From assembly GCA_012031535.1 (NCBI GenBank), contig JAAUTI010000053.1, forward strand, positions 1-15,115: a stretch of DNA of 15,115 nt. Direction: 5' to 3'. Below the pieces are notes generated by a model that ran no database searches, had not been told where the DNA came from, and saw only the letters and a list, made by a program, of their open reading frames with translations. This DNA is from Microcoleus sp. SM1_3_4. Its GTDB lineage: Bacteria; Cyanobacteriota; Cyanobacteriia; Cyanobacteriales; Microcoleaceae. Shown here piece after piece: positions 243 through 15,115 of the stretch (positions are counted from its first letter, which is position 1; each line of letters opens with the position of its first letter). Both the position numbers and the translations under genes were made by a program.

Positions 243-2300
243 CTAACCCTCATTACTGTTAATTGCCAACCAAGCCCGCAACACTTCAGCCACCGTCCAA
301 GCTTGCGCCGTACAGCCCCGAGGTTCAAAGGGGTCATCGCCTTCAAAAATTTCGCCCAAACTGCCCACACCGCCCGCAAGTATATGATGTGCCATCGGTG
401 CCAGCAGTTCGGCAGCTTGTACCGGGTTTTTGTATACATCCAAGTGAGCCAAAACAAAAGAACCGATAAGCCAGCCCCAAACCGTACCCTGATGGTAGGC
501 GCTGTCGCGCTGCAATTGGTCGCCGCCATATTTGCCCCGATACAGGGGATGGTGCGGGGAGAGGCTGCGCAGGCCGAAGGAAGTGAGAAGGTCCTGCGCG
601 CAGGCATCTACTACTGACTTGCGCCGATCGGGCGTGAGTAACGGTGTATACTTGTGAGTTTCTTTCCCCGCACTTTCTTTTGCTGTAAAGGTTTTAGCGG
701 ATAAGTTCAGGGGCAGGGATACGGCAAATATCTGATTGGGGCGTAGGGAAATGTCGTGTCCCCCCGGACCGTCGAGAACGTCGAAACAGTAGCCTGCTTT
801 AGCGTTCCAGAAACGAGTGAATCCGGCTGCCGTGCGATCGGCTAACTTTTGGTATTCATAGTGAGGTTTGCCCAGTTTTTGCGCGAAATCTACCATCGAT
901 TGTATAGCATTGTACCAAAGAGCGCTGAGTTCGATCGGCTTGCCAGTGCGGGGCGTTACCACCCACTTGCCAATTTTGGCGTCCATCCAAGTCAGTTGCG
1001 AGTCTTCCTCACCAGCGTAAACTAAACCGTCGTCGGGATCGACGCGAATTTTATACCGCGTTCCTCGCAAGTGCCAGTCAACTATCTCACATAAAATCGG
1101 CCACAGTTCGCCCAACAGCCGATCGTCCCCAGTGGCATCAACATAGGCGCGAATTGCCTCAAAGTACCACAGCGTCGCGTCTGCGGTGTTGTATTCCGGC
1201 GCGCCGCCGGCATCGGGAAAGCGATTCGGCAGCATTCCCCGATCGACATATCGGGCAAAAGTCCGCAGGATCGATCGGGCAATTTCCCCGCGCCCGGTAC
1301 AGATTGTGAGACCGGGCAGGCTAATCATCGTATCGCGCCCCCAGTCGCTAAACCAGGGATATCCGGCGATGATGGTTTTGCCCTCGGGTTCCCCCGGTAG
1401 CGGGCGCTTGACGATAAATTGGTCTGCAGCTAGGACTAATTGTTCGATCCAATCGGGAGAGTCGCCGGCTTTGGGCCATTTTTGCAGCACTTCCAAATCG
1501 CCCGCACGGCGCATTTCCAAGGCTGCAGTGCCGTCTAAATCGGGATTTTTCGCGGTACTGGCTGCCAAAGTGAGAGACTCCCCCGGCGCGATGGTGAAGT
1601 GGAAAGTTGCGGCGTGCAGGTGATCCTCGCAACATTCGAGCCCGCGCCGCCTTTCTGCTGCGAGGTCAAATCCGTAGTGCCAGTTGTATAAAGGTGTAGA
1701 AACTCGGAATTTCGCCTCGGCTGCAGCATCTGCCAGCAGGTAAAGGGGCGCTGCTGCTGTGAACGCAGTCACGCAAACTCCTGCAGCAGGGGTTTCTACG
1801 GCAATCGGCCAATCGTCCGCGCTTGTCATGTGGTGGTAGTCGCGGTAATTTACTAAAGCTTTGACGGCTAGGGCGATCGGTTTTGAGGCGCGGTGCAAGC
1901 GGTATTGAATATATGTTGTGTTAGCACTTTGTTGCATCCAAATCCGTTTTTCGAGGATGGCGTCAGCGAGGGCAAACCGCCAAACAGGCGTCGTGCCTTC
2001 GAGGTGAAAGCTTTCGATGTATTTGTAGCCTTGGGGTTCGATCGTCCCGTCGGCCCAGCGGTTTGTATAAAGCGGGTAGGCGCGATCGTTATACACCGCC
2101 GTTTCGTCCAGCTTGGCCAGCATCAAAGTCCGTCCCAGCGGGGGTTTGAGTGCCGCCACCAACAAGCCGTGATACCGCCTGGTGAGAAGACCCGCGATCG
2201 TCCCGCTAGCGTAACCGCCGATGCCGTTAGTAACTAACCATTCACGAGACTCGGCAGAGTCCAGATTGCCGCAGATTTCCCGTCCAAAAGCAATAACCAT
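243..2300 (-). CDS. glycogen debranching protein, GDE_N + amylo-alpha-1,6-glucosidase (GDE_C) family, 685 aa, apparently intact
   Basis: ATG at 2300-2298. N-terminus EWLVTNGIGGYASGTIAGLLTRRYHGLLVAAL is the characteristic GDE_N domain signature. The long C-terminal region has the (alpha/alpha)6 amylo-1,6-glucosidase-type motif GYPWFSDWGRDTMISLPGL. Single uninterrupted ORF. Confidence 0.85.
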   Translation of the reverse strand: MVIAFGREICGNLDSAESREWLVTNGIGGYASGTIAGLLTRRYHGLLVAALKPPLGRTLMLAKLDETAVYNDRAYPLYTNRWADGTIEPQGYKYIESFHLEGTTPVWRFALADAILEKRIWMQQSANTTYIQYRLHRASKPIALAVKALVNYRDYHHMTSADDWPIAVETPAAGVCVTAFTAAAPLYLLADAAAEAKFRVSTPLYNWHYGFDLAAERRRGLECCEDHLHAATFHFTIAPGESLTLAASTAKNPDLDGTAALEMRRAGDLEVLQKWPKAGDSPDWIEQLVLAADQFIVKRPLPGEPEGKTIIAGYPWFSDWGRDTMISLPGLTICTGRGEIARSILRTFARYVDRGMLPNRFPDAGGAPEYNTADATLWYFEAIRAYVDATGDDRLLGELWPILCEIVDWHLRGTRYKIRVDPDDGLVYAGEEDSQLTWMDAKIGKWVVTPRTGKPIELSALWYNAIQSMVDFAQKLGKPHYEYQKLADRTAAGFTRFWNAKAGYCFDVLDGPGGHDISLRPNQIFAVSLPLNLSAKTFTAKESAGKETHKYTPLLTPDRRKSVVDACAQDLLTSFGLRSLSPHHPLYRGKYGGDQLQRDSAYHQGTVWGWLIGSFVLAHLDVYKNPVQAAELLAPMAHHILAGGVGSLGEIFEGDDPFEPRGCTAQAWTVAEVLRAWLAINSNEG

Positions 2301-2863: not shown

Positions 2864-4685
2864 GTGAAGATCGGAGCAAATTACTCGGGCAACAACCAAT
2901 GTGAATTTACCGTGTGGGCTCCCACCCTCGATCGAGTAGAACTTCACATTGTTTCGCCGCAAAAACTCCTTATCCCCATGCAAAAAACGGCAGCGGGTTA
3001 TTGGACGGCTACAGTGGCAGACATCCCTCCTGGCACTCTTTATACCTACAAACTTGACGGCACGATCGATCGCCCCGATCCGGCTTCCAAATATCAGCCC
3101 CAAGGCGTACACTCTCCATCCCAAGTAATCGACGATCGCGCTTTTACTTGGACTGAGCCAGGTTGGCAAGGTGTTCCTTTACCGGAATGATAATTTACGA
3201 ACTGCACGTCGGTACATTTACGCCAGCCGGAACTTTTGAGGCAATTATTCCGCAACTCGATCGACTCAAACAACTGGGAATTAATGCCATCGAAATTATG
3301 CCCGTGGCTCAATTCCCGGGCGATCGCAACTGGGGCTACGACGGCGTATATCCCTACGCGGTTCAAAATTCCTACGGCGGCCCGGAAGGCTTCAAAAAAC
3401 TTGTTGACTCCTGCCACCAACAAGGCATTTCCGTAATCCTCGATGTCGTTTACAACCACCTCGGACCTGAAGGCAATTATCTGCGCGACTTCGGCCCCTA
3501 CTTTACATCAAAATACGGTTCTATTTGGGGCGACCCCCTCAACTTCGACGACAAATACAGCGATGAAGTGCGCAACTACTTTATTAAAAACGCCGTATAC
3601 TGGTTTCGAGACTATCATATCGATGCTTTGAGACTCGATGCAATTCAAGCAATATTTGAAGTAGGTGCGAGGCCGTTTTTGCAAGAACTCGCCGACACCA
3701 CAGCCGAACTTTCCCAACAACTAGGACGGAAACTTTATCTAATTGCAGAAAGCGACTTGAATGATGTCCGAGTCCTGCGATCGAAAGAATTCGGCGGCTT
3801 CGGACTCGACGCCCATGGTGCGACGATTTTCACCACGCACTGCACGCGCTACTTACAGGAGAAAATGACCGCTATTACCAAGATTTCGGCAAGTGCGAAC
3901 ACCTAGAAAAAGCCTTCAAAGAAAGCTTTGTTTATTCGGGACAATACGCCCCTCACCGATTGCGCAAACACGGCAATTCTGCCGCAGCCCAACCCGCCCA
4001 CCAATTCCTCGTATTTTCCCAAACCCACGACCAAATCGGCAACCGCATTTTGGGAGACCGGCTATCAAAAATAGTTAATTTTGAAGGATTGAAACTTGCT
4101 GCCGGCACTGTTTTAATTTCTCCTTACATTCCATTTTTATTTATGGGTGAAGAGTATGGAGAAGAAACACCGTTTTTGTACTTTGTTTCCCACTCGGATG
4201 AGAACTTAATTGAAGCCATCCGCAAAGACAAACAGCAAGAATTTAAAATTTTTGAAGATAGGGGAGAATTTCAAGACCCCCAGAGTCCTGAAACTTTCCA
4301 AAACTGCAAATTAGATTGGGAAAAACACACCCAAGGGAAACACAAAATCCTCTGGGAATGGCACCAGCAGCTAATTCAATTGCGGCGGACAATTCCCGCC
4401 CTGAAAAAACTCGACAAAAACAGTTTGGAAGTATTTAGTAGCGAAGCCGAAAAAATCTTATTTCTCCGTCGCTGGGCTGATGACAGCCAGATATTTTGCA
4501 TTCTAAACTTCAACAAGCAAGAAGTTGCTATTACGGCTAAAATTCCTCAAGGTAACTGGGAAAAGATTTTAGATTCGATCGACACTAAATGGCTGGGTAC
4601 AGGTTCAACATTACCTCAAAAGATAACTTCCGAGCAAAAATTGACAGTCCAACCGCAAAGTTTTGCGCTTTATCAATTACAGTAA
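2864..4685 (+). CDS. treZ: malto-oligosyltrehalose trehalohydrolase TreZ (GH13 with N-terminal CBM48/E-set domain). Reading frame broken by two single-base frameshifts (near 3185-3190 and 3811-3816). ORF fragments are 2864-3190, 3163-3906 and 3960-4685.
   Basis: GTG start at 2864. Fragment 1 [20 protein letters not shown]...WQGVPLPE is the E-set/CBM48 N-domain. Fragment 2 contains [11 protein letters not shown]...[10 protein letters not shown]...GYDGV and [19 protein letters not shown] (GH13 catalytic regions). Re-translating across 3811-3830 in the third frame gives [54 protein letters not shown], which joins directly onto fragment 3. The three pieces sum to about 607 aa, the normal TreZ length. 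Both shifts are -1 relative to an intact gene. Confidence 0.88.
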
Positions 4686-4899: not shown

Positions 4900-7699
4900 A
4901 TGAGAATCCCCACTACAACCTATCGCATTCAATTTCATGCAGGCTTTAACTTTGAAGCAGCCCAACAAATCCTCAGCTATTTAGAAGAATTAGGAATCAC
5001 CGACCTTTACGCTTCACCAATATTTAAAGCCAGAAAAGGCAGCACTCACGGCTACGATGTAGTTGACTCGAATCAGCTAAACCCCGAATTAGGAACCTCC
5101 GAAGACTTTGAAAAACTCATCGGCGAAATCCAGAAACGCAAAATGGGATGGTTGCAAGATATCGTCCCGAATCACATGGCTTACGATACTCAAAATTTGT
5201 TGCTTTTAGACGTACTGGAACACGGGCCGGATTCTGACTATTTCGACTACTTTGATATTGAATGGAATCACAGTTACGAAAATATCAGAGGGCGAGTGTT
5301 AGCGCCGCTGCTAGGCAACTTTTACGGTGAATGTTTGGAAAATGGCGAAATTCAACTCAAGTACGGCGAAAACGGGTTGAGCGTCAATTACTACAGCTTA
5401 GAATTGCCAGTTAGAATCGAATCCTATGCCAAGTTTATCAGTCAAAATTTGGGACACTTAGCCAGGGAATTGGGGAGAAAACATCCCGATTTTATCAAGT
5501 TACTGGGGATACTTTACATGATTAAAAATGTCCCTGCTGAAACTCAAGGTAAGGAAAGGTACGACCAAATAGCGTTCGCCAAAGGCTTGCTGTGGGAACT
5601 CTACAATCAAAATCCCATAGTGCAGAAATTTTTTGAGGATAATATCGAATTTTTCAACGGTGAAAAGGGCAATCCCGAAAGCTTTAATCCGCTGGATAAT
5701 TTACTATCCGATCAGTTTTACCGCCTTTCTTTCTGGAAAGTGGGTGCTGAAGAAATTAACTACCGGAGATTTTTTACTGTCAACGAACTGATTTCAGTAA
5801 AAGTTGAAGAGCTCAAAGTTTTTCTCAAGAACCAAGATTTGATTTTCGATCTGGTTGAAGAGGGGAATTTCACGGGATTGAGAATTGACCATATTGACGG
5901 ACTTTACGATCCTACGGAATATTTAGAAAGACTGAGAAAGAAAATCGGAGATACTTACATTGCTGTTGAAAAAATTCTCGAACACAAAGAAGATTTGCCC
6001 TCTTATTGGCCGATTCAAGGAACCAGCGGCTACGATTTTTTAAACTATGTAAACGGTGTTTTTTGTCGGTGCGATCGCGAGCAACAATTTAGCGATATCT
6101 ATCACAGATTTACTCGTTTAAATACGCCCTACGAACAGTTATTTCTCGCTAAAAAGACCTTGATTATCGAAAAGAATTTAGCGGGAGATGTAGACAATCT
6201 TGCTCAACTTTTAAAAACAATATCCGGCCATTCCCGACAAGGAAATGATTTTACCCGCCGCGGCTTAGAACAAGCACTTTCTGCTGTTTTGGCAATTTTT
6301 CCTGTTTACCGAACTTACATTAATCAAGATGGTTTGCGAGAGTCCGATCGCACTTATGTAAAAGAGGCAATTGCCCAAGCAAAAGAACAAGTACCGCTGC
6401 TGCTGAAAGAAATCGATTTCATCGAAAAACTGCTGTTATTAGAAGAAGAAGAAACCGTAACTTCAGAACAAAAAGCCTACCGCCGCCACTTCGTCATGAA
6501 GCTGCAGCAACTAACAGGCCCGCTGATGGCAAAAGGCGTTGAAGACACACTTCTATACGTCTACTACCGTCTTTTATCCCTCAACGAAGTCGGAGGAAAT
6601 CCCAGTCAATTCGGTGTTTCCCTAGCAGATTTTCACGAGTTCAACCAACAGCAGCAACAGGTTTGGCCGCACAAAATGAATGCTACAGCTACCCACGACA
6701 CCAAACGCGGGGAAGACGTGCGAGCTCGAATTAACATCCTCTCAGAAATTCCCGAAGAATGGGAACAGCAAGTCAAATCTTGGCGAGAAGTAAACTCTGC
6801 CAAAAAGTTAACTTAGTGAATCGCATAGTTCCCGATACTAACGATGAATACTTCTTTTACCAAACTTTAGTCGGCACTTTTCCATTTGAGGGAATTGAAA
6901 ATACAGATTATATCGATCGCATCAAAAATTATGTCATCAAAGCCGTCCGCGAAGCGAAAGTTCACACTGCTTGGCTGCGGCCGGATAACAAATATGAAGA
7001 AGGTTTTATTACCTTTGTCGATCGGGTTTTGGAACCTGGGGAATCAAATCAATTTCTCAAAAAATTTCAGCCTTTCTGCAAAAAGTAGCCCTCTACGGAA
7101 TTGGCAATTCTTTATCTCAAACCCTGCTCAAAATTGCATCACCGGGCATTCCCGACATTTATCAAGGAACGGAATTTTGGGATTTGAGTCATGTCGATCC
7201 TGACAACCGCCGCCCGGTAGATTTTGAACGCCGGATCGAGGTTTTGCAGGAAATAAAACAGAGATCGGAGGCGGATATTTTGCAACTGATTGAGGAGTTG
7301 ATAGCAACGCGAGAAGATGCTAGAATTAAACTATTCCTAACCGCCAGACTTCTCGCATCCCGCAAACAGTACCGCGAAGTTTTTGCCCGAGGCAATTACC
7401 AGCCACTAACAGTAACTGGCCCTTTTAAAGATAGTATTATTGCTTTTGCCAGAAGCTGGGGAAACACGACAATTATGGCTGTTGCCCCTCGATTTGTGAC
7501 CAGCGTTGTTGCGCCGGAAGCAATGGCGATCGGCAAAGAAATCTGGGAAGATACGGAGTTAGAATTGCCGCCAGGAATGCCTGTTGTTTGGCAGGATGCG
7601 GTGACAAATCAGACGCTAGAAAGTGACGGTACGCTGGAAATTTCTGAAGTCTTGAAATACTTTCCTGCTGCGATGGCGATCGGGCAAAATAGCAATTAA
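4900..7699 (+). CDS. treY: malto-oligosyltrehalose synthase TreY (GH13). Frame broken by two single-base frameshifts (near the A5 run at 6801-6805 and near 7072-7085). ORF fragments are 4900-6816, 6759-7088 and 7184-7699.
   Basis: ATG at 4900. N-terminus TYRIQFHAGFNFEAAQQILSYLEELGITDLYASPIFKARKGSTHGYDVVDSNQLNPELG...DIVPNHMAY is the TreY signature. Fragment 2 (NDEYFFYQTLVGTFPFEG) and the third frame read from 7077 (FLQKVALYGIGNSLSQTLLKIASPGIPDIYQGTEFWDLSHVDPDNRRPVDFERR) continue the family alignment without a gap. Total length about 933 aa, as expected for TreY. Confidence 0.88.
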
Positions 7700-7807: not shown

Positions 7808-10459
7808 CTAGCTTTCATTCGCCCCAGAACCGATCAAACCTTGAGCCGCGTTAAATAAATTGATCGGATTTTTCCCATCAGTAATTAACACGCTTTGAAT
7901 GCCGAGAGATTGCAAAAGTTTAGCCTGCATTTCCGGTCCGGCTTGTGCCATTGCTTTCAAAGTTTCAGGCCCGATAGCCTCTACTTTTTCCCGGAATTCC
8001 GCACTGGTAATTTCCGCCATTCGCTGGGCTTTCTCAATTTCTAGAGTGCTTAGGGCTTGTTGGTGGGCTAATTCTGCTTCCTGTCTGGCCCTCATTTGCG
8101 CCAATTCTCCCTCGGCGCGAATTCTGGCTGCTTCCGCTTCCTGCTGTGCCAAATTCACTGCTAATTCGCCTTGAATTTCGCGCTGCTTCTGCTTTTCGCC
8201 CTCGCTTCGGCTGTCGCGTGCCCGGTAGATTCGATCGCAATATTTTCTGCCTGCAATTCTAACAGATTTTTGCGTTCGGATTCCGCCGCACCCTTATCTA
8301 CAATTGCCTGTCTTTCCAATCTAGCTTTTGCCTCTTGTTCGATGCGGGCTGCATCGTGCTTCGCAGCAGCTTCTTGAGCGTCAGTGGTAATTTGAATTGC
8401 AATTTGTACCGATTTTTGCAAACTTTTTAACGTTGCTTCATCGATCGGTTCGACTGATTGAATGTCAATATTAGTAATGACCAAACTGTTAGTTTTAAAC
8501 CGAAATTCATCTCCGATCCGACCGTCTTCGCTGACGCCAAATACAGCATGGCGGATAATTCGTGCCGAATTGCGGTGGAATTCATCAAACTTTTCTCCCG
8601 CAACTGCACCGCGAACCGAGAGGCAATTGCCTTGCAAGCATCTCCTACAAAATCGGGAACTTGAAACAGTTTTGCCGCCGCTTGTTCGTCGTGCCGCACG
8701 AGATCGAAATACCAGTTATAAGATAGCTGAATTTGCAAGCGAGCGTGATCCGATGTTTCTACAGTAAAAACATCAGTCATAAAATCTGGACCCAGCAACA
8801 AAGCTAAAGATTTAATCGCATTCGGCTTTTTCGGTTTGCCGCCAGACAAACTGAGAACTGTAAACGCTTCATCCGGCCCCAACATCACCAAATCCGGCCC
8901 GAATACAGTGCGGGCAGTGCGATTTTTGTAATCGTGAATTTGCACTGCGGAATTTTGGGGAACGTGGAACACAACTGCCCTGGTTTTATCCCGCAAAACC
9001 TGCATTTCCGAGTGGGCAACACCGCGCAATTGCTGCATTCCGCGATCGGAAATCGGATCGCTTTTTTGTGCTAGCAATTCTTCAACAACTGGCGGCAATT
9101 CTTTTTCCCAAAGTTCCTCGTAAGGACTCAGCATATATGCTTGCGGCCCGCCCACTAATCGGAGTTCTCCTGTTTGGATATCGCGCACGTAAATGCCTTC
9201 ATTCTTATCCAGAGGAATCGCTTTTCGCTTTTCCACAACTTCTACTTCGACGCGGGGAATGTAATCGCGCGGTCCGGAAATCATCCATAAATCCCCCGGT
9301 TGGTGGGAAACTAGATTGTCGCTTTCTCCCTCATTAAAAGCTTCTTTCGCTCTCAATAACAGTGCTTCTTGTTCGCTGAGAACGTAAACTGTTGAATCCC
9401 GCCTTCCAAGATTCTCCCGGATGCAGGAAAAGAAGCTCGACCTGGCGGACTTCTTCAGTCCAATTGAGGCTTACCATCCGCATCAATTGGATCGAGAACA
9501 ATGCACCATTGACGATCGCCCAAAGTAGCAATTTCTACTTCTCCTACTACTTCTTCGTACACGTCGGGAATGTGAATTTCTGCATCTTCAAACGTCACCA
9601 ACCATTCATCGCCCGCTTTTCTCTGCCGCCCGAAAACATCAGTAAAAGTGCGTTTAGCCTTCAAATGCAGGGCTTTTCGTTCCGTCAAAACACAAGCATT
9701 AATAATGTTGACAACAGCTTCATCAACTCCCGGCAAATAAGCACCTTCATCCCTCACCAACCATTCTTCACCAGCGCGGCGGCGGTTTCCTTGCCTGTCA
9801 GTACAAGATTGTCGGGCGATTAAGCGCAAAGCTTGATTCGGTTTAATTACTACAGATTTCACCGTTTCTACAACTTCAACTTCCACGCGCGGCAAATAAG
9901 TTCCCGGCCCTTCAAACAGCCATTCATCCCCAGCCAAACGATTAATTGTTTGACCTTCAGATTCACTTTCTCCTGCCGTTGCTGTAGGGGCAATCCCCCC
10001 GTGGCTGCCCCGCATGGGAGGAGTATCTGCAAAATCTCGCAGTGCTCGGAGGCGCAATGCTTGATTGGTTTCGACAACCTGCAAGCGAGTCACATCCTGC
10101 TCTAATTCTTCTCCCGGATACAGGGCAAAAGGTTCTTGAGCAAAGCGAACTTCTGCATCGCCGTAGCGCAATTTAATTTGTCCGTGAGGGTCAGCAATCG
10201 GTTGATTTTCTGCATCACGGAGGACGGGATTAGCAACAATACAATAGTAGCGCGGCGGCACGATTAGCATCGGTTCCGGTCTTAAAATCAGCCGTTCGTG
10301 GTCGCGCAAAGTGATTGTTTGCGGGCCGACTTCTAGCCTGGTAATGCCCGTATTGTTATCGATGACATGAATGTATTGCTGCGGCTTCAGGCGAATAATG
10401 CCGCTAGAAATCCCCAAAGTTTCACCTTTGTTATCGCGTTTTAGTTCGCTGGTATTCAT
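7808..10459 (-). CDS. Major Vault Protein (MVP) homologue, about 884 codons, full eukaryote-like architecture. Frame broken by four single-base frameshifts (near 9455, 9405, 8613 and 8195). ORF fragments are 9455-10459, 8427-9356, 8161-8637 and 7808-8158.
   Basis: ATG at 10459-10457. The translation matches MVP along its whole length, as I recall the eukaryotic protein. N-terminal repeat region: [20 protein letters not shown]...[12 protein letters not shown]...[20 protein letters not shown]...[22 protein letters not shown]...GEEWLV...[22 protein letters not shown]. Middle: [44 protein letters not shown]...[15 protein letters not shown]...[26 protein letters not shown]...[11 protein letters not shown]...[15 protein letters not shown]...[19 protein letters not shown]. 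Shoulder/cap-helix: [27 protein letters not shown]...[11 protein letters not shown]...[25 protein letters not shown]-terminus: [49 protein letters not shown]. Re-translation across the junctions restores continuity (e.g. [21 protein letters not shown] joins fragment 1 to 2; [15 protein letters not shown] joins 2 to 3). Confidence 0.9.
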
Positions 10460-12006: not shown

Positions 12007-12980
12007 CTAAGAACCGCGCTGAACTTCGACAAAAATCTCCTCTAAAATTTCCTGCGCTCCTTGTTTGCGCAAGCGGTGAGCGAGGTCAATTCCCAACATT
12101 TCGGCTGTTTCGGCAGCACCTGTTACAGTGTCTTTGACTAACCGCTTGCCGTCGAGACTGGCTACCATGCCGGTTAAAGTTAATTGACCGTTTTCTATGT
12201 TAGTATTAACGCCGATCGGCACTTGACAGCCGCCTTCCAATTCCCGCAAAAATGCGCGTTCGGCATAACACCGTTGGGCGGTTTCCGAATGTTCTAAAGC
12301 TTTAATTACTTGTAGAATTTCTGGATCTCCGGCGCGGCATTCAATCCCCAAAGCACCCTGTCCGACAGCGTGCAAAGAGATTTCGGGAGCGATAATTTGA
12401 TGGATGCGATCGCTCATTCCCAATCTTTCCAATCCCGCCACTGCTAAAATAATTGCATCGTAACCGCCCTCATCCAATTTGGCGAGTCTAGTGTTAAGAT
12501 TGCCGCGAATATCTTTAAAATTCAAAATGAGGGAAATGGTGGCGCAATTGGGCGAGCCGGCGCAGGGAAGAAGTGCCGATAACAGCACCTTCTGGCAGGG
12601 TATCGAGTTGCTTGTCTTTGTGTTTTTTCGTGAACTACGAGGGCGTCAGCAGGATTTTCCCGTTCGGTGACGCATCCTAAAATTAAACCTTCGGGTAAAT
12701 TGGTAGGCAAATCCTTGAGGGAATGAACGGCAAAGTCCGTTTCATTGTTCAGCATTCCCGTTTCTAATTCTTTTGTAAAAAGTCCTTTATCGCCGATTTT
12801 GGCTAGGGCGACATCAAGAATTTTATCGCCTTGCGTGGCCATCGTGTGGACTTCAAAAGTACGTTCGGGAAAGTGTTTCTGAAGCTGTGCTTGCACCCAA
12901 TGAGTTTGAACGAGGGCGAGTTGGCTTTTGCGAGAACCGATGCGGACGGTTCTGGAGGGGGCAGATGCGATCGGAGACAT
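12007..12980 (-). CDS. hemC: porphobilinogen deaminase (hydroxymethylbilane synthase) HemC. Frame broken by two homopolymer indels (A6 on the coding strand at plus-strand 12623-12628 and T4 at plus-strand 12517-12520). ORF fragments are 12522-12980 and 12007-12588.
   Basis: ATG at 12980-12978. N-terminus [21 protein letters not shown]...[20 protein letters not shown]...[12 protein letters not shown] is the HemC signature. After VVHEK the frame is lost. Reading one base over gives [37 protein letters not shown] second shift then gives [33 protein letters not shown]...[10 protein letters not shown]...GGCQVPIG (fragment 2). Total about 324 aa. Removing one A from the A6 run and one T from the T4 run restores a single ORF. 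Confidence 0.9.
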
Positions 12981-13364: not shown

Positions 13365-13393
13365 TCTTTTTAAACCAGCAAATATCTTATAAT
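13365..13393 (+). promoter_or_regulatory. candidate sigma70-type promoter for the Panacea-domain gene (perfect -10 TATAAT at 13388-13393, weak -35)
   Basis: Consensus TATAAT hexamer 39 nt upstream of the ATG at 13432. Only a weak T-rich -35 (TTTAAA 13369-13374). The paired palindrome element lies 90-190 bp further upstream. Confidence 0.25.
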
Positions 13394-13431
13394 TACAAGT
13401 AAATTTGTCAAATTACTCAAATTCTCAAATT

Positions 13432-13887
13432 ATGAAAAGTGCTCTGGATGTAGCTCGTTACTTTTTATGTCGGGTCGATCGAGAATCAGGCGATACTATT
13501 TCTCTGCTCAAATTGCAAAAGCTCGTGTATTACGCTCAAGCTTGGAGTTTAGTTTTTAGAAGCCAGCCGCTATTTTTTCAAGATGTTGAAGCTTGGGTTT
13601 CCGGCCCTGTTGTCCGCGATGTTTGGAATGAATACAAAGCTTACAAATATAGCGATATTCCCGTTCCCGATAACTTTGATGGAGAATTTGAGGAAGATGA
13701 ACTCGAAGTTCTCGAAGAAGTTTGGAATGCTTATGGAGAATTAAGTGCTAAACATTTGGCAGAACTAACGCACTCAGAGATGCCTTGGTTAAACGCTCGC
13801 AAGGGATTAGAACCTGCGGAAACATCAACTAACATCATCTCTCACGATGATATGAAAGACTGCTATTCATCTTTGGTAGAGGCATAA
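13432..13887 (+). CDS. Panacea-domain (DUF4065, SocA/PanA-like) protein; putative type II antitoxin
   Basis: The ORF track begins at a TTG (13405). The first ATG is at 13432 (MKSALDVARYF...). The core DTISLLKLQKLVYYAQAWSLVFRSQPLFFQDVEAWVSGPVVRDVWNEYKAY matches the DUF4065/Panacea signature (hydrophobic LKLQKL(L/V)YYAQ..., then AW..GPVV..V(Y/W)..YK). Acidic C-terminal half. Confidence 0.65.
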   Translation: MKSALDVARYFLCRVDRESGDTISLLKLQKLVYYAQAWSLVFRSQPLFFQDVEAWVSGPVVRDVWNEYKAYKYSDIPVPDNFDGEFEEDELEVLEEVWNAYGELSAKHLAELTHSEMPWLNARKGLEPAETSTNIISHDDMKDCYSSLVEA

Positions 13888-14325
13888 GTGGGAAAAAAGA
13901 ATCAAATACCAAAACCACCTCAAAAACAACAAAGAAAAATTCCAGAAGCAGCAACCCTGTTAAGCCAACCAAGCAGTACAGATAACGAGCATCCTAGCTT
14001 CCGATTTACCTATGCAGATAAAAATCGTTGGCTGCTGTCCGATTGGACAGCATCAGAAATCAATGACCTAATTGCAGGACTGAAGAAAATTGAAAAATAT
14101 ACTTGGGCTCAAATCAAAGGTCATGGCTCAAAAAAACGAGGTGAATCAGTAGGAACGGGTTATAAGTTAATTGACACCCATCCGACTTTGCCTGACAATA
14201 TTCCTGAAGATGAAAGATTATCAGAGATGCGAATTGATGAGAAAAAACGGATATTTGGGTTTCGCGTTCAATCTGTTTACTACATCGTTTGGTTCGATCG
14301 CGACCATTCTGTTTGTCCAGAATAA
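13888..14325 (+). CDS. hypothetical protein, possible RelE/HigB-superfamily-like toxin partner of the upstream Panacea protein; GTG start immediately after the upstream TAA stop, in the same reading frame
   Basis: Uninterrupted 145-codon ORF with no internal ATG before codon ~110. The C-terminal region GYKLIDTHPTLPDN...RIFGFRVQSVYYIVWFDRDHS resembles, as I recall it, the HigB/RelE C-terminus (YKLHPLKGD...WRITFQF.NGDAYILNYEDYH). The N-terminal ~40 residues are low-complexity (K/Q/P-rich). Assignment by eye only. Confidence 0.4.
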   Translation: MGKKNQIPKPPQKQQRKIPEAATLLSQPSSTDNEHPSFRFTYADKNRWLLSDWTASEINDLIAGLKKIEKYTWAQIKGHGSKKRGESVGTGYKLIDTHPTLPDNIPEDERLSEMRIDEKKRIFGFRVQSVYYIVWFDRDHSVCPE

Positions 14326-14390
14326 AACTTAGAGTTTTTAGATACAGTTTAATTGTACAGCAATTTACTCAAATCCTCACAGAAGGAAAA

Positions 14391-14488
14391 AGGAAAAGGG
14401 GGAGAGGGGAATATTTTAGATTTTAGATTGGGAGATTTGGAGAATTACCAATTACCAATTACCAATTACCAACTATCAACTGTCAACT
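14391..14488. repeat. short tandem repeat mosaic: GGGGGAGAGGGG, GGAGAATTACCAATT, 4x TTACCAA heptamer, CAACT(A/G)T heptamers
   Basis: Seen directly: AAAAGGGGGAGAGGGG (14395-14410), GGAGAATT(ACCAATT)x3 ACCAACTATCAACTGTCAACTG (14441-14488). Related in inverse orientation to 2391-2440 and in direct orientation to 4862-4893. Confidence 0.7.
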
Positions 14489-14492
14489 GAAT

Positions 14493-15115
14493 TTATCGTT
14501 GTCCCGATCGAATTGCGGAATTTGCTATTTGTACGACTTCTTGCTGCGTGCCATTTTTCCTGCTTACTCGATACAGTACGCCCAACCTTTGCCACTCAAC
14601 AAACGCATTGCAGTAAGCACCGCATTTATTAAAATACATCGCTTTCATTCCCCCTGCTAATTCTATACTCCTGTAAGTATCGCGCGGCAAATTAGAAGGC
14701 GGTGAAAAGGGTTCGCTTCTGATAGCTTCGATCGTCCCGAAATAGCAAGTTCTCGTGCGGCATCCTTTACCTAAATACATTCTCACGATGTAACCGTGGG
14801 AGCCTGCTTGCACGTCAAATTCGAGTTGCTGAGTGGCAGGTAAAAACAGCCTGCTGGGCAGAAATACAGGCACTCGCGTTTTGCCTTTAATTTGCTTAAA
14901 TATGTTATTTGCCGGAAAAGAACTGTTAGCTTTTTGCGTGCCTGAATTTTCGATCGGCCGTAATTGTTTGGCAAACTTCCGCCACTCTGAAAATCTGTTT
15001 TTAACGATATTGAAAGTAGGAATTAAATATTTTTCCACAGCCACAGATTGGCGGTTATTTGGGAGTTGGAAATTGCGACGGATGGTCGTTGTTTCTGGTT
15101 TCCCCAATCCGTAAG
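14493..15115 (-). CDS. hypothetical protein, C-terminal 204+ codons; ORF runs off the right window edge (N-terminus not in window)
   Basis: Long minus-strand ORF open to the window end, stop at 14493. Contains a Cys-containing C-terminal region (GKGCRTRTCYFG...YFNKCGAYCNAFVEWQRLGVLYRV). I could not place it in a family by eye. Coding-like composition. Confidence 0.45.
   Translation of the reverse strand, partial: YGLGKPETTTIRRNFQLPNNRQSVAVEKYLIPTFNIVKNRFSEWRKFAKQLRPIENSGTQKANSSFPANNIFKQIKGKTRVPVFLPSRLFLPATQQLEFDVQAGSHGYIVRMYLGKGCRTRTCYFGTIEAIRSEPFSPPSNLPRDTYRSIELAGGMKAMYFNKCGAYCNAFVEWQRLGVLYRVSRKNGTQQEVVQIANSAIRSGQR

Follow-up and report, generated by a model that had tools for sequence, protein, structure and literature searches.

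The stretch of Microcoleus sp. SM1_3_4 DNA considered here (contig JAAUTI010000053.1; 15,115 nucleotides (nt), hereafter the window) carries two open reading frames (ORF1 and ORF2) that lie on the same strand and in the same frame, with a single TAA between them. Do they form one interrupted gene or two, and if two, what kind of system is the pair? The products are separate, and we consider it probable that the two genes, panA and panT, are a chromosomal type II PanAT toxin-antitoxin cassette. It would consist of a Panacea-domain antitoxin (PanA) and a RelE-fold toxin of PanT cluster T1 (PanT), the latter probably an RNase that PanA would keep in check by binding it (coordinates in Table 1).

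A preliminary description had called ORF1 a Panacea (DUF4065) protein, and the domain search agreed. ORF1 matched PF13274 (SocA_Panacea) over residues 28-119 with an E-value of 1.1e-22 and 81.5 bits (cut-off 25.7). This was its sole domain, and no helix-turn-helix (HTH) match was found in the Pfam scan. The frame opens mechanically at TTG 13405; when 13 related loci are aligned, the conserved start proves to be ATG 13432 (ATGAAAAGT).

ORF2 is 145 codons long and begins with GTG straight after the TAA, in the frame of ORF1, as first described. From the opening of the frame to about the tenth codon there is no start codon other than this GTG, and no further methionine is encoded until residue 114. 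ORF2 had no match in Pfam at E ≤ 1. It passed the NCBIfam model NF046006 (MAG6450 family) with 44.1 bits (cut-off 40), residues 37-143 aligning to model positions 2-102 of 103, and its close homologues carry the NCBI and UniRef name "MAG6450 family protein". We found 83 homologues at E ≤ 1e-3, mostly of 144-150 amino acids (aa). The family profile retrieved 3,703 cluster representatives at 50% identity (1,245 with E ≤ 1e-10), and the top 150 were all of 102-172 aa and aligned from about profile position 1 over nearly the full profile.

We found the two genes side by side in over 55 loci of Cyanobacteria, Bacillota, Chloroflexi, Planctomycetota, Bacteroidota, and Alphaproteobacteria, and the genes around them are unrelated. 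Where the sequence 5' of panT was long enough, a panA homologue almost always stands immediately 5' of the panT homologue on the same strand. Because homologues are many and this arrangement recurs so regularly, we regard ORF1 and ORF2 as real genes rather than chance reading frames. The identities of PanA and PanT to the window proteins drop in parallel over the loci (100/100, 83/89, 75/81, 66/59, 43/42, and 36/27%), and only panA and panT travel together as a unit. In about 20 Microcoleaceae genomes the pair occupies one site, between hemC and a convergent gene of 204 aa; we therefore regard it as a vertically inherited chromosomal locus in this family. Elsewhere the flanks include RNase HII, a WD40 protein, DUF29, TniQ, a GH25 lysozyme with a peptidoglycan-binding domain, and an AI-2E transporter; for several flanks nothing was matched. 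The cassette has a GC content of 38-41% against 45-50% in its flanks, which hints at an accessory origin without settling the matter. Two of the distant contexts are worth recording in their own right. In Anabaenopsis elenkinii (L043, 6469-6969) a panAT-T1 pair lies beside a TniQ gene, suggesting cargo of a Tn7-like transposon, and in Clostridium botulinum (L048, 4196-5212) one lies beside the gene for the GH25 lysozyme with a peptidoglycan-binding domain, suggesting a prophage lysis module. Both contexts fit carriage by mobile elements.

The arrangement places the pair among the PanAT systems. Kurata et al. (2022, PNAS, PMC8832971) predicted 1,268 PanA-PanT pairs with 88 toxin clusters. The antitoxin-first order, previously pointed out as the reverse of higBA, is indeed what we see, and it is the usual order among PanAT (943 of the 1,268 predicted pairs; PMC8832971). 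Cluster T1 heads Dataset S1 of that study and is apparently the largest PanT cluster. Its entries include Scytonema, Cylindrospermum stagnale (WP_015208860/61), Oscillatoria nigro-viridis PCC 7112 (WP_015177621/22), Mycoplasma agalactiae 5632 (WP_013022262/63), and Salmonella phage vB_SemP_Emek (YP_006560565/66), and in the T1 rows examined all pairs are antitoxin-first with gaps of -62 to +74 nt (Dataset S1, PMC8832971). ORF2 matched the Cylindrospermum T1 toxin WP_015208861.1 (P0103) by BLASTP at 6e-11 and through the family profile at 1.9e-31. A tblastn search of phage genomes with ORF2 found Emek YP_006560566.1 (E=1e-6) directly after the DUF4065 gene YP_006560565.1, the very T1 pair that was assayed by Kurata et al. 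(PMC8832971). As ORF2 is homologous to listed T1 toxins and also passes the NF046006 cut-off, we assign it to the T1/MAG6450 family, a placement made by homology to listed members. The family takes its name from MAG6450 of M. agalactiae PG2; a nearby gene, MAG6440, bears the annotation "prophage protein ps3", presumably an old label for DUF4065 proteins.

The window pair thus has a Panacea domain above the gathering threshold, a partner in a recognized PanT cluster, a gap of 0 nt, and flanks unrelated to those of other loci, all of which mark a PanAT pair. It shares with the T1 systems a stand-alone Panacea antitoxin that lacks an N-terminal domain, the antitoxin-first order, a gap or overlap of few nt, and a homologous toxin. 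It differs from them in its PanT, which falls into a separate subclade, shares only about 22-27% identity with those listed T1 members that were compared, has a lineage-specific insertion, SKKRGESV (81-88), and is without the R-H motif frequent in the rest of the family. The toxin family is already cataloged, under the names PanT cluster T1 and MAG6450 (NCBIfam); it is biochemically uncharacterized and not validated as a toxin-antitoxin system.

Conservation within the panT family (n=188) was highest at G124 and D137 (99% each), followed by F38 (95%), P36 (89%), W73 (88%), P102 (87%), F131 (87%), W135 (86%), R115 (84%), and R126 (74%). The C-terminus reads WFDR(D/N/E)H.VCPE in the subclade of the window PanT, which comprises oscillatorian cyanobacteria and some Clostridia. 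Most MAG6450-family members have WFDRNFTLY.H there and carry an R-H-G motif where the window PanT reads S-V-G. The N-terminal extension rich in K, Q, and P that had been remarked upon is present, but it is not unusual. A basic tail (M-x-K-K ... K/R-I, with a hydrophobic residue at position 18) was found in family members from all of the phyla and classes listed above for the pair, and is a family-wide trait by sequence comparison rather than a peculiarity of this protein. It lies outside the 103-position NCBIfam model.

For the remainder of PanT, an AlphaFold2 model from a 57-sequence alignment gave a mean predicted local distance difference test score (pLDDT) of 78 and a predicted template modeling score (pTM) of 0.68, with pLDDT of 91-95 in the core blocks and 51-58 in the tail, where one short helix (20-23) was predicted. 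The elements are ordered as a strand (37-39), two helices (55-69 and 73-78), a partly disordered loop (79-110), and three strands (111-115, 121-127, and 130-137). A first strand and two helices followed by a three-stranded antiparallel sheet is the arrangement by which the RelE/ParE superfamily is recognized, so the predicted core takes a RelE/BECR fold. In the model, the conserved residues R115, R126, and D137 and the subclade-specific R138 and H140 lie on strands beta2-beta4 and the C-terminal tail as candidate active-site residues. The RelE/HigB likeness proposed for ORF2 consequently survives in part: the order of elements in the model is that of RelE/BECR proteins, while no Pfam RelE, ParE, or HigB match accompanies it. 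The likeness is real at the level of fold and absent at the level of curated sequence families. A Foldseek search with the model also listed RelE-type proteins, but none of them reached E ≤ 0.001. As a separate matter, membership of ORF2 in a curated RelE/ParE/HigB sequence family was considered and rejected, since neither ORF2 nor the 57 family members had such a match in Pfam.

How close does this bring PanT to known RelE-type toxins? RelE, HigB, YoeB, and YafQ share with it the predicted order of secondary-structure elements, and like them it is a small basic protein in a two-gene toxin-antitoxin operon. PanT differs in having a basic N-terminal tail of about 35 aa and a loop of about 30 residues between alpha2 and beta2. 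Its partner is a Panacea protein and not RelB, HigA, YefM, or DinJ, and its catalytic residues cannot be equated with those of RelE-type mRNA interferases. HigBA, moreover, is toxin-first and has a HigA with an HTH-XRE domain, whereas the window pair is antitoxin-first with a Panacea protein, and it does not qualify as HigBA.

A closer relative in sequence was found in the Menshen system. Residues 54-142 of the PanT core matched positions 197-280 of the 284-position PADLOC model for NsnC with an E-value of 1.4e-8, and 42 of 57 PanT-family members matched this model (best E=7e-15). Li et al. (2025, NAR, PMC12065111) describe the C-terminal PB-BECR1 of NsnC as an RNase domain of the BECR type whose H-R-H triad resembles that of YafQ. 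Both proteins are predicted BECR-fold nucleases. Menshen comprises NsnA (ParB-DUF262), NsnB (an ABC ATPase with DUF3696), and NsnC (an inactive PIN domain joined to the nuclease), and its description makes no mention of Panacea or MAG6450 (PMC12065111). PanT differs in that it lacks the inactive-PIN N-terminal domain of NsnC and has PanA as its regulator. The window does not hold the three genes of Menshen: only the C-terminal nuclease part of NsnC was matched, the neighbors are hemC and the 204-aa gene, and no match for NsnA (ParB-DUF262) or NsnB (ABC ATPase) was found among the flanking ORFs of the window scanned against Pfam.

We propose that the cassette would work as follows. panA and panT would be carried on one mRNA from a promoter 5' of 13432, and translation of panT would be coupled to termination of panA by the abutting stop and start and the GAGG ahead of the GTG. 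By analogy with RelE, HigB, YoeB, and YafQ, PanT is most probably an endoribonuclease that would block translation, with R115, R121/R126, D137, R138, and H140 as candidate active-site residues in the model. PanA would most probably neutralize it by direct binding through its globular Panacea domain, which may take hold of the N-terminal tail of PanT. Stand-alone Panacea has been shown to neutralize a toxin directly, and in one case it did so via the unstructured N-terminal region of the toxin (Ernits et al., PMC10440598), which makes the tail of PanT a plausible handle for PanA.

Several observations weigh against this reading. None of the 57 family members matched the Pfam models for RelE, ParE, HigB, Gp49, YoeB, or YafQ, and a profile search of PDB sequences returned only noise (E ≥ 0.47). 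The putative catalytic set varies among the PanT relatives, as it generally does among RelE proteins: 43% of members have F in place of H140, and the R-H motif that is frequent elsewhere at positions 87-88 is S-V in the window PanT. The promoter and the co-transcription are read from sequence alone. Lastly, the PanTs of E. coli MOD1 and phage Emek, two of the three T1 members tested, were non-toxic in E. coli, and the Clostridium cadaveris PanT was toxic there but was not rescued by its own PanA (PMC8832971).

These assays also lend themselves to another explanation, in which the pair is real but PanT is a conditionally activated effector, for instance a nuclease for phage defense or abortive infection with PanA as the sensor, or has a non-toxic role. 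We judge this unlikely, while granting that more speaks for it than the non-toxic assays. T1 homologues occupy accessory positions in temperate phages (Salmonella Emek, E. coli phiv205-1, and seven Pseudomonas phages), PanT has its core domain in common with the Menshen effector NsnC, and Ernits et al. propose Panacea as a sensor (PMC10440598). Yet the C. cadaveris PanT is toxic, and the Microcoleaceae pair sits at one stable site in about 20 genomes, between hemC and the conserved 204-aa gene, where the scanned flanking genes match no phage or defense family (the 204-aa gene is unannotated). A conditional effector also overlaps with the toxin-antitoxin reading rather than excluding it, as defense would still need a toxic effector. 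A bolder version, which we hold to be quite unlikely, is that PanT T1 (MAG6450) and the Menshen PB-BECR1 are the same RelE-like RNase module, released by Panacea on a phage or stress cue, so that PanAT-T1 would be a minimal two-gene, Menshen-related defense system. If true, this would explain why T1 toxins can be non-toxic or non-neutralizable in plain E. coli assays.

The RelE/ParE fold serves both RNases and gyrase poisons, and PanT could accordingly be a ParE-like gyrase poison instead of an RNase. We think this very improbable. The sole sequence-level relative of PanT with a functional prediction is the BECR RNase domain of NsnC, RNA binding would fit both the basic tail and the Arg, Asp, and His conserved on the sheet, and Table S1 of Kurata et al. 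labels the T1 toxins "mRNase" (PMC8832971).

Even less credible is an antitoxin of the type VI SocAB kind, in which PanA would be a proteolytic adaptor that passes PanT to ClpXP rather than a binding inhibitor. The Panacea domain, which the antitoxin of Caulobacter SocAB shares with PanA, takes its name from SocA, and the best NCBIfam match of PanA was indeed SocA_antitoxin (NF047745; E=3.9e-16). At 59.2 bits, however, this match falls far below the equivalog cut-off of 190, and we therefore regard PanA as a Panacea protein and not a SocA orthologue. PanT is unrelated to SocB, so the pair does not classify as SocAB either. The PanAT pairs assayed by Kurata et al. form stable complexes, as type II systems do (PMC8832971), and the direct neutralization by stand-alone Panacea cited above (PMC10440598) likewise argues for inhibition by binding. 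Judging from these comparisons, a proteolytic-adaptor mechanism would not be expected for PanA.

It remains to ask whether the two ORFs are two genes at all, as the preliminary description had advised considering readthrough, a fusion product, or a substitution error. We rebuilt the junctions for the panA and panT homologues located in 68 loci. In the window the junction reads TAAGTG, with a gap of 0 nt, and the GAGG lies 5 nt 5' of the panT GTG. Gap-0 junctions of the form GTGGAGGCnTAA/TAG followed by GTG, ATG, or TTG were found in Microcoleus, Tychonema, Hormoscilla, Okeania, Spirulina, and relatives. They usually carry GTGGAGGCn before the stop, that is, a Shine-Dalgarno (SD)-like GGAGG 5 nt from the start, and in all 30-odd gap-0 loci the stop is TAA or TAG. 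Phormidium, Floridaenema, Argonema, Nostocales, and others have overlapping TAGTG, TAATG, or TGATG junctions with gaps of -1 or -4, panA and panT of Bacillota and Chloroflexi overlap by 8 or 17 nt, and Kamptonema, Planctomycetota, and Bacteroidota have spacers of 5-8 nt. In these overlapping or spaced loci the two genes are in different frames (the sole exception is L060, with a 6-nt spacer), and a fused product is therefore impossible there.

We also compared the window with L001, L002, and L003, three further assemblies from the same strain or one nearly identical to it, in all of which the TAA is the same. Against L003 the window has 12 indels and 20 substitutions over 7.2 kb; positions 13405-14325 hold one of the substitutions (14141) and no indel. 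Because the TAA is identical in the three assemblies and a stop is present in every related genome examined, we conclude that it is not an assembly error. The shared frame in the window is best seen as incidental, since a gap of 0 yields it, the stop is always at the junction, and other lineages use other frames. No fused Panacea-toxin protein was found among the best 150 family representatives. What is conserved at the junction is a tight coupling of stop and start, which supports translational coupling, as had been suggested from the TAAGTG, rather than readthrough or a sequencing error. We give practically no credence, then, to the idea that ORF1 and ORF2 make up a single gene, interrupted by a sequencing error or read as one protein through stop-codon readthrough, for which the shared frame, the single TAA, and the assembly indel errors elsewhere in the window (hemC and the genes for the vault protein and the amylase are split) could be cited, but against which stand the retained stop and the other frames just described, family representatives of 102-172 aa aligned from about profile position 1, the SD-like motif ahead of the junction with a conserved start codon (GTG, ATG, or TTG) after the stop, and the fact that the errors in the window are indels, whereas losing the stop would require a substitution. 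More generally, comparison of junctions across lineages offers a way to separate an incidental in-frame abutment of stop and start from a fusion or readthrough.

The same comparison turned up junctions at which panT has been altered. In two loci from Okeania and a related metagenome-assembled genome (MAG), L036 (5958-5999) and L038 (5803-5862), a heptamer array (TCAGTTA)n directly follows the panA stop and replaces the first ~33 panT codons, which encode the basic tail; coding resumes at ...NPSFRF. L035 and L052 share the TAAttcagttatcagtta junction with these two, and the matching database proteins are just 96 aa. From the sequences, the toxin seems to be decaying or to have been truncated as a short cyanobacterial tandem repeat expanded. 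The 5' end of panT is also disrupted in L046 and L026, where the junction sequence is different.

Table 1. Positions of the panA-panT cassette, its parts, and other features in the window.
Feature	Position	Strand	Description or basis
panA	13432..13887	+	Stand-alone Panacea (DUF4065) antitoxin, 151 aa, no extra N-terminal domain; PF13274 match
Coupling junction	13879..13890	+	SD-like GAGG 13879-13882 (in last panA codons), panA stop TAA 13885-13887, panT start GTG 13888-13890
panT	13888..14325	+	145 aa, GTG 13888 to TAA 14323-14325; ORF and family match
PanT N-terminal basic tail	13888..13992	+	Residues 1-35, MGKKNQIPKPPQKQQRKIPEAATLL...; predicted mostly disordered
PanT core	13993..14325	+	Residues 36-145 and stop; RelE/BECR-fold domain of the MAG6450/PanT-T1 family; predicted fold
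Candidate -10 element	13388..13393	+	TATAAT, ~40 nt 5' of panA start; read from sequence; tentative
5' leader of panA	13402..13432	+	Three direct repeats of 8-9 nt (TCAAATTAC-like), abuts panA ATG; repeat search
Tandem heptamers 3' of panT	14383-14489		AATTACC (4.3 copies), CAACTGT (2.9 copies), ATTTTAG, AAGGAAA
204-aa ORF	14493-15107	-	Convergent to panT; no Pfam match
hemC (porphobilinogen deaminase)	12007-12980	-	Two overlapping ORFs; extra bases at 12517 and 12623 relative to L003
Major Vault Protein homologue	8161-10459	-	Split over three ORFs (9455-10459, 8427-9356, 8161-8637); Vault repeats PF01505 x3, Vault_2, Vault_3, Vault_4, MVP shoulder domain
Alpha-amylase-family gene	3163-4685	+	Apparent split: 3163-3906 (start of catalytic domain), 3960-4685 (DUF3459 and Alpha-amylase_C)

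Upstream of panA, a consensus promoter scan found no convincing sigma-70 promoter, the TATAAT having no good -35 element. The aligned position in the Microcoleaceae loci reads TAnnAT (TAGCAT, TACCAT, or TACAAT), and our tentative assignment of the panA promoter is based on this conserved hexamer. The direct repeats of the leader were also picked up by Tandem Repeats Finder (TRF; period 8, 2.9 copies), and they are possibly an operator or an element of translation control. The leader sequence AAGTGAATTTGTCAAATTACTAAAAT is mostly kept in Microcoleaceae loci but not in those of Okeania, Hormoscilla, or Spirulina.

On the other side of the cassette, the terminator scan found no intrinsic terminator 3' of panT, and a scan of the whole window against Rfam matched no RNA family. 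The region behind panT holds a series of tandem heptamers, which we take to resemble the STRR-type repeats of filamentous cyanobacteria. The 204-aa ORF beyond them has Microcoleaceae homologues of 62-74% identity at the same position and, in related loci, a paralogue of ~35% identity about 1 kb further on; it showed no association with panAT outside the Microcoleaceae clade.

Some of the other genes in the window are broken. The vault-protein gene differs from that of the near-identical L003 by about ten single-base indels, and its split is therefore probably an assembly artifact and not a mark of a pseudogene. The break in hemC is likewise probably a sequencing indel, as the two halves share one frame in L003 and about 20 relatives. 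The split amylase gene adjoins a second amylase-family gene (4900-6816) and a gene for a glycogen debranching enzyme (243-2300, minus strand); together these genes are a glycogen-metabolism cluster, and the amylase split may be another assembly error. L003 itself (JAAUPF010000142.1, the "Richelia sp. CSU_2_1" MAG) is the closest public genome, being 99.5% identical over 7.2 kb. Its Richelia label looks doubtful, as its gene content and synteny match those of Microcoleus, Tychonema, and Kamptonema.

As a discovery the cassette carries little weight, since the pair fits the published PanAT class, its toxin family is named in NCBIfam, and its relatives are in the survey. What the analysis adds concerns the family as a whole. 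T1/MAG6450, which has no Pfam family or validated pair, gains the assignment of a predicted RelE/BECR fold and a sequence-level link to the effector domain of Menshen NsnC. For the Microcoleaceae, the copy fixed beside hemC provides a convenient orthologous series in which the maintenance or decay of a chromosomal toxin-antitoxin pair may be followed.

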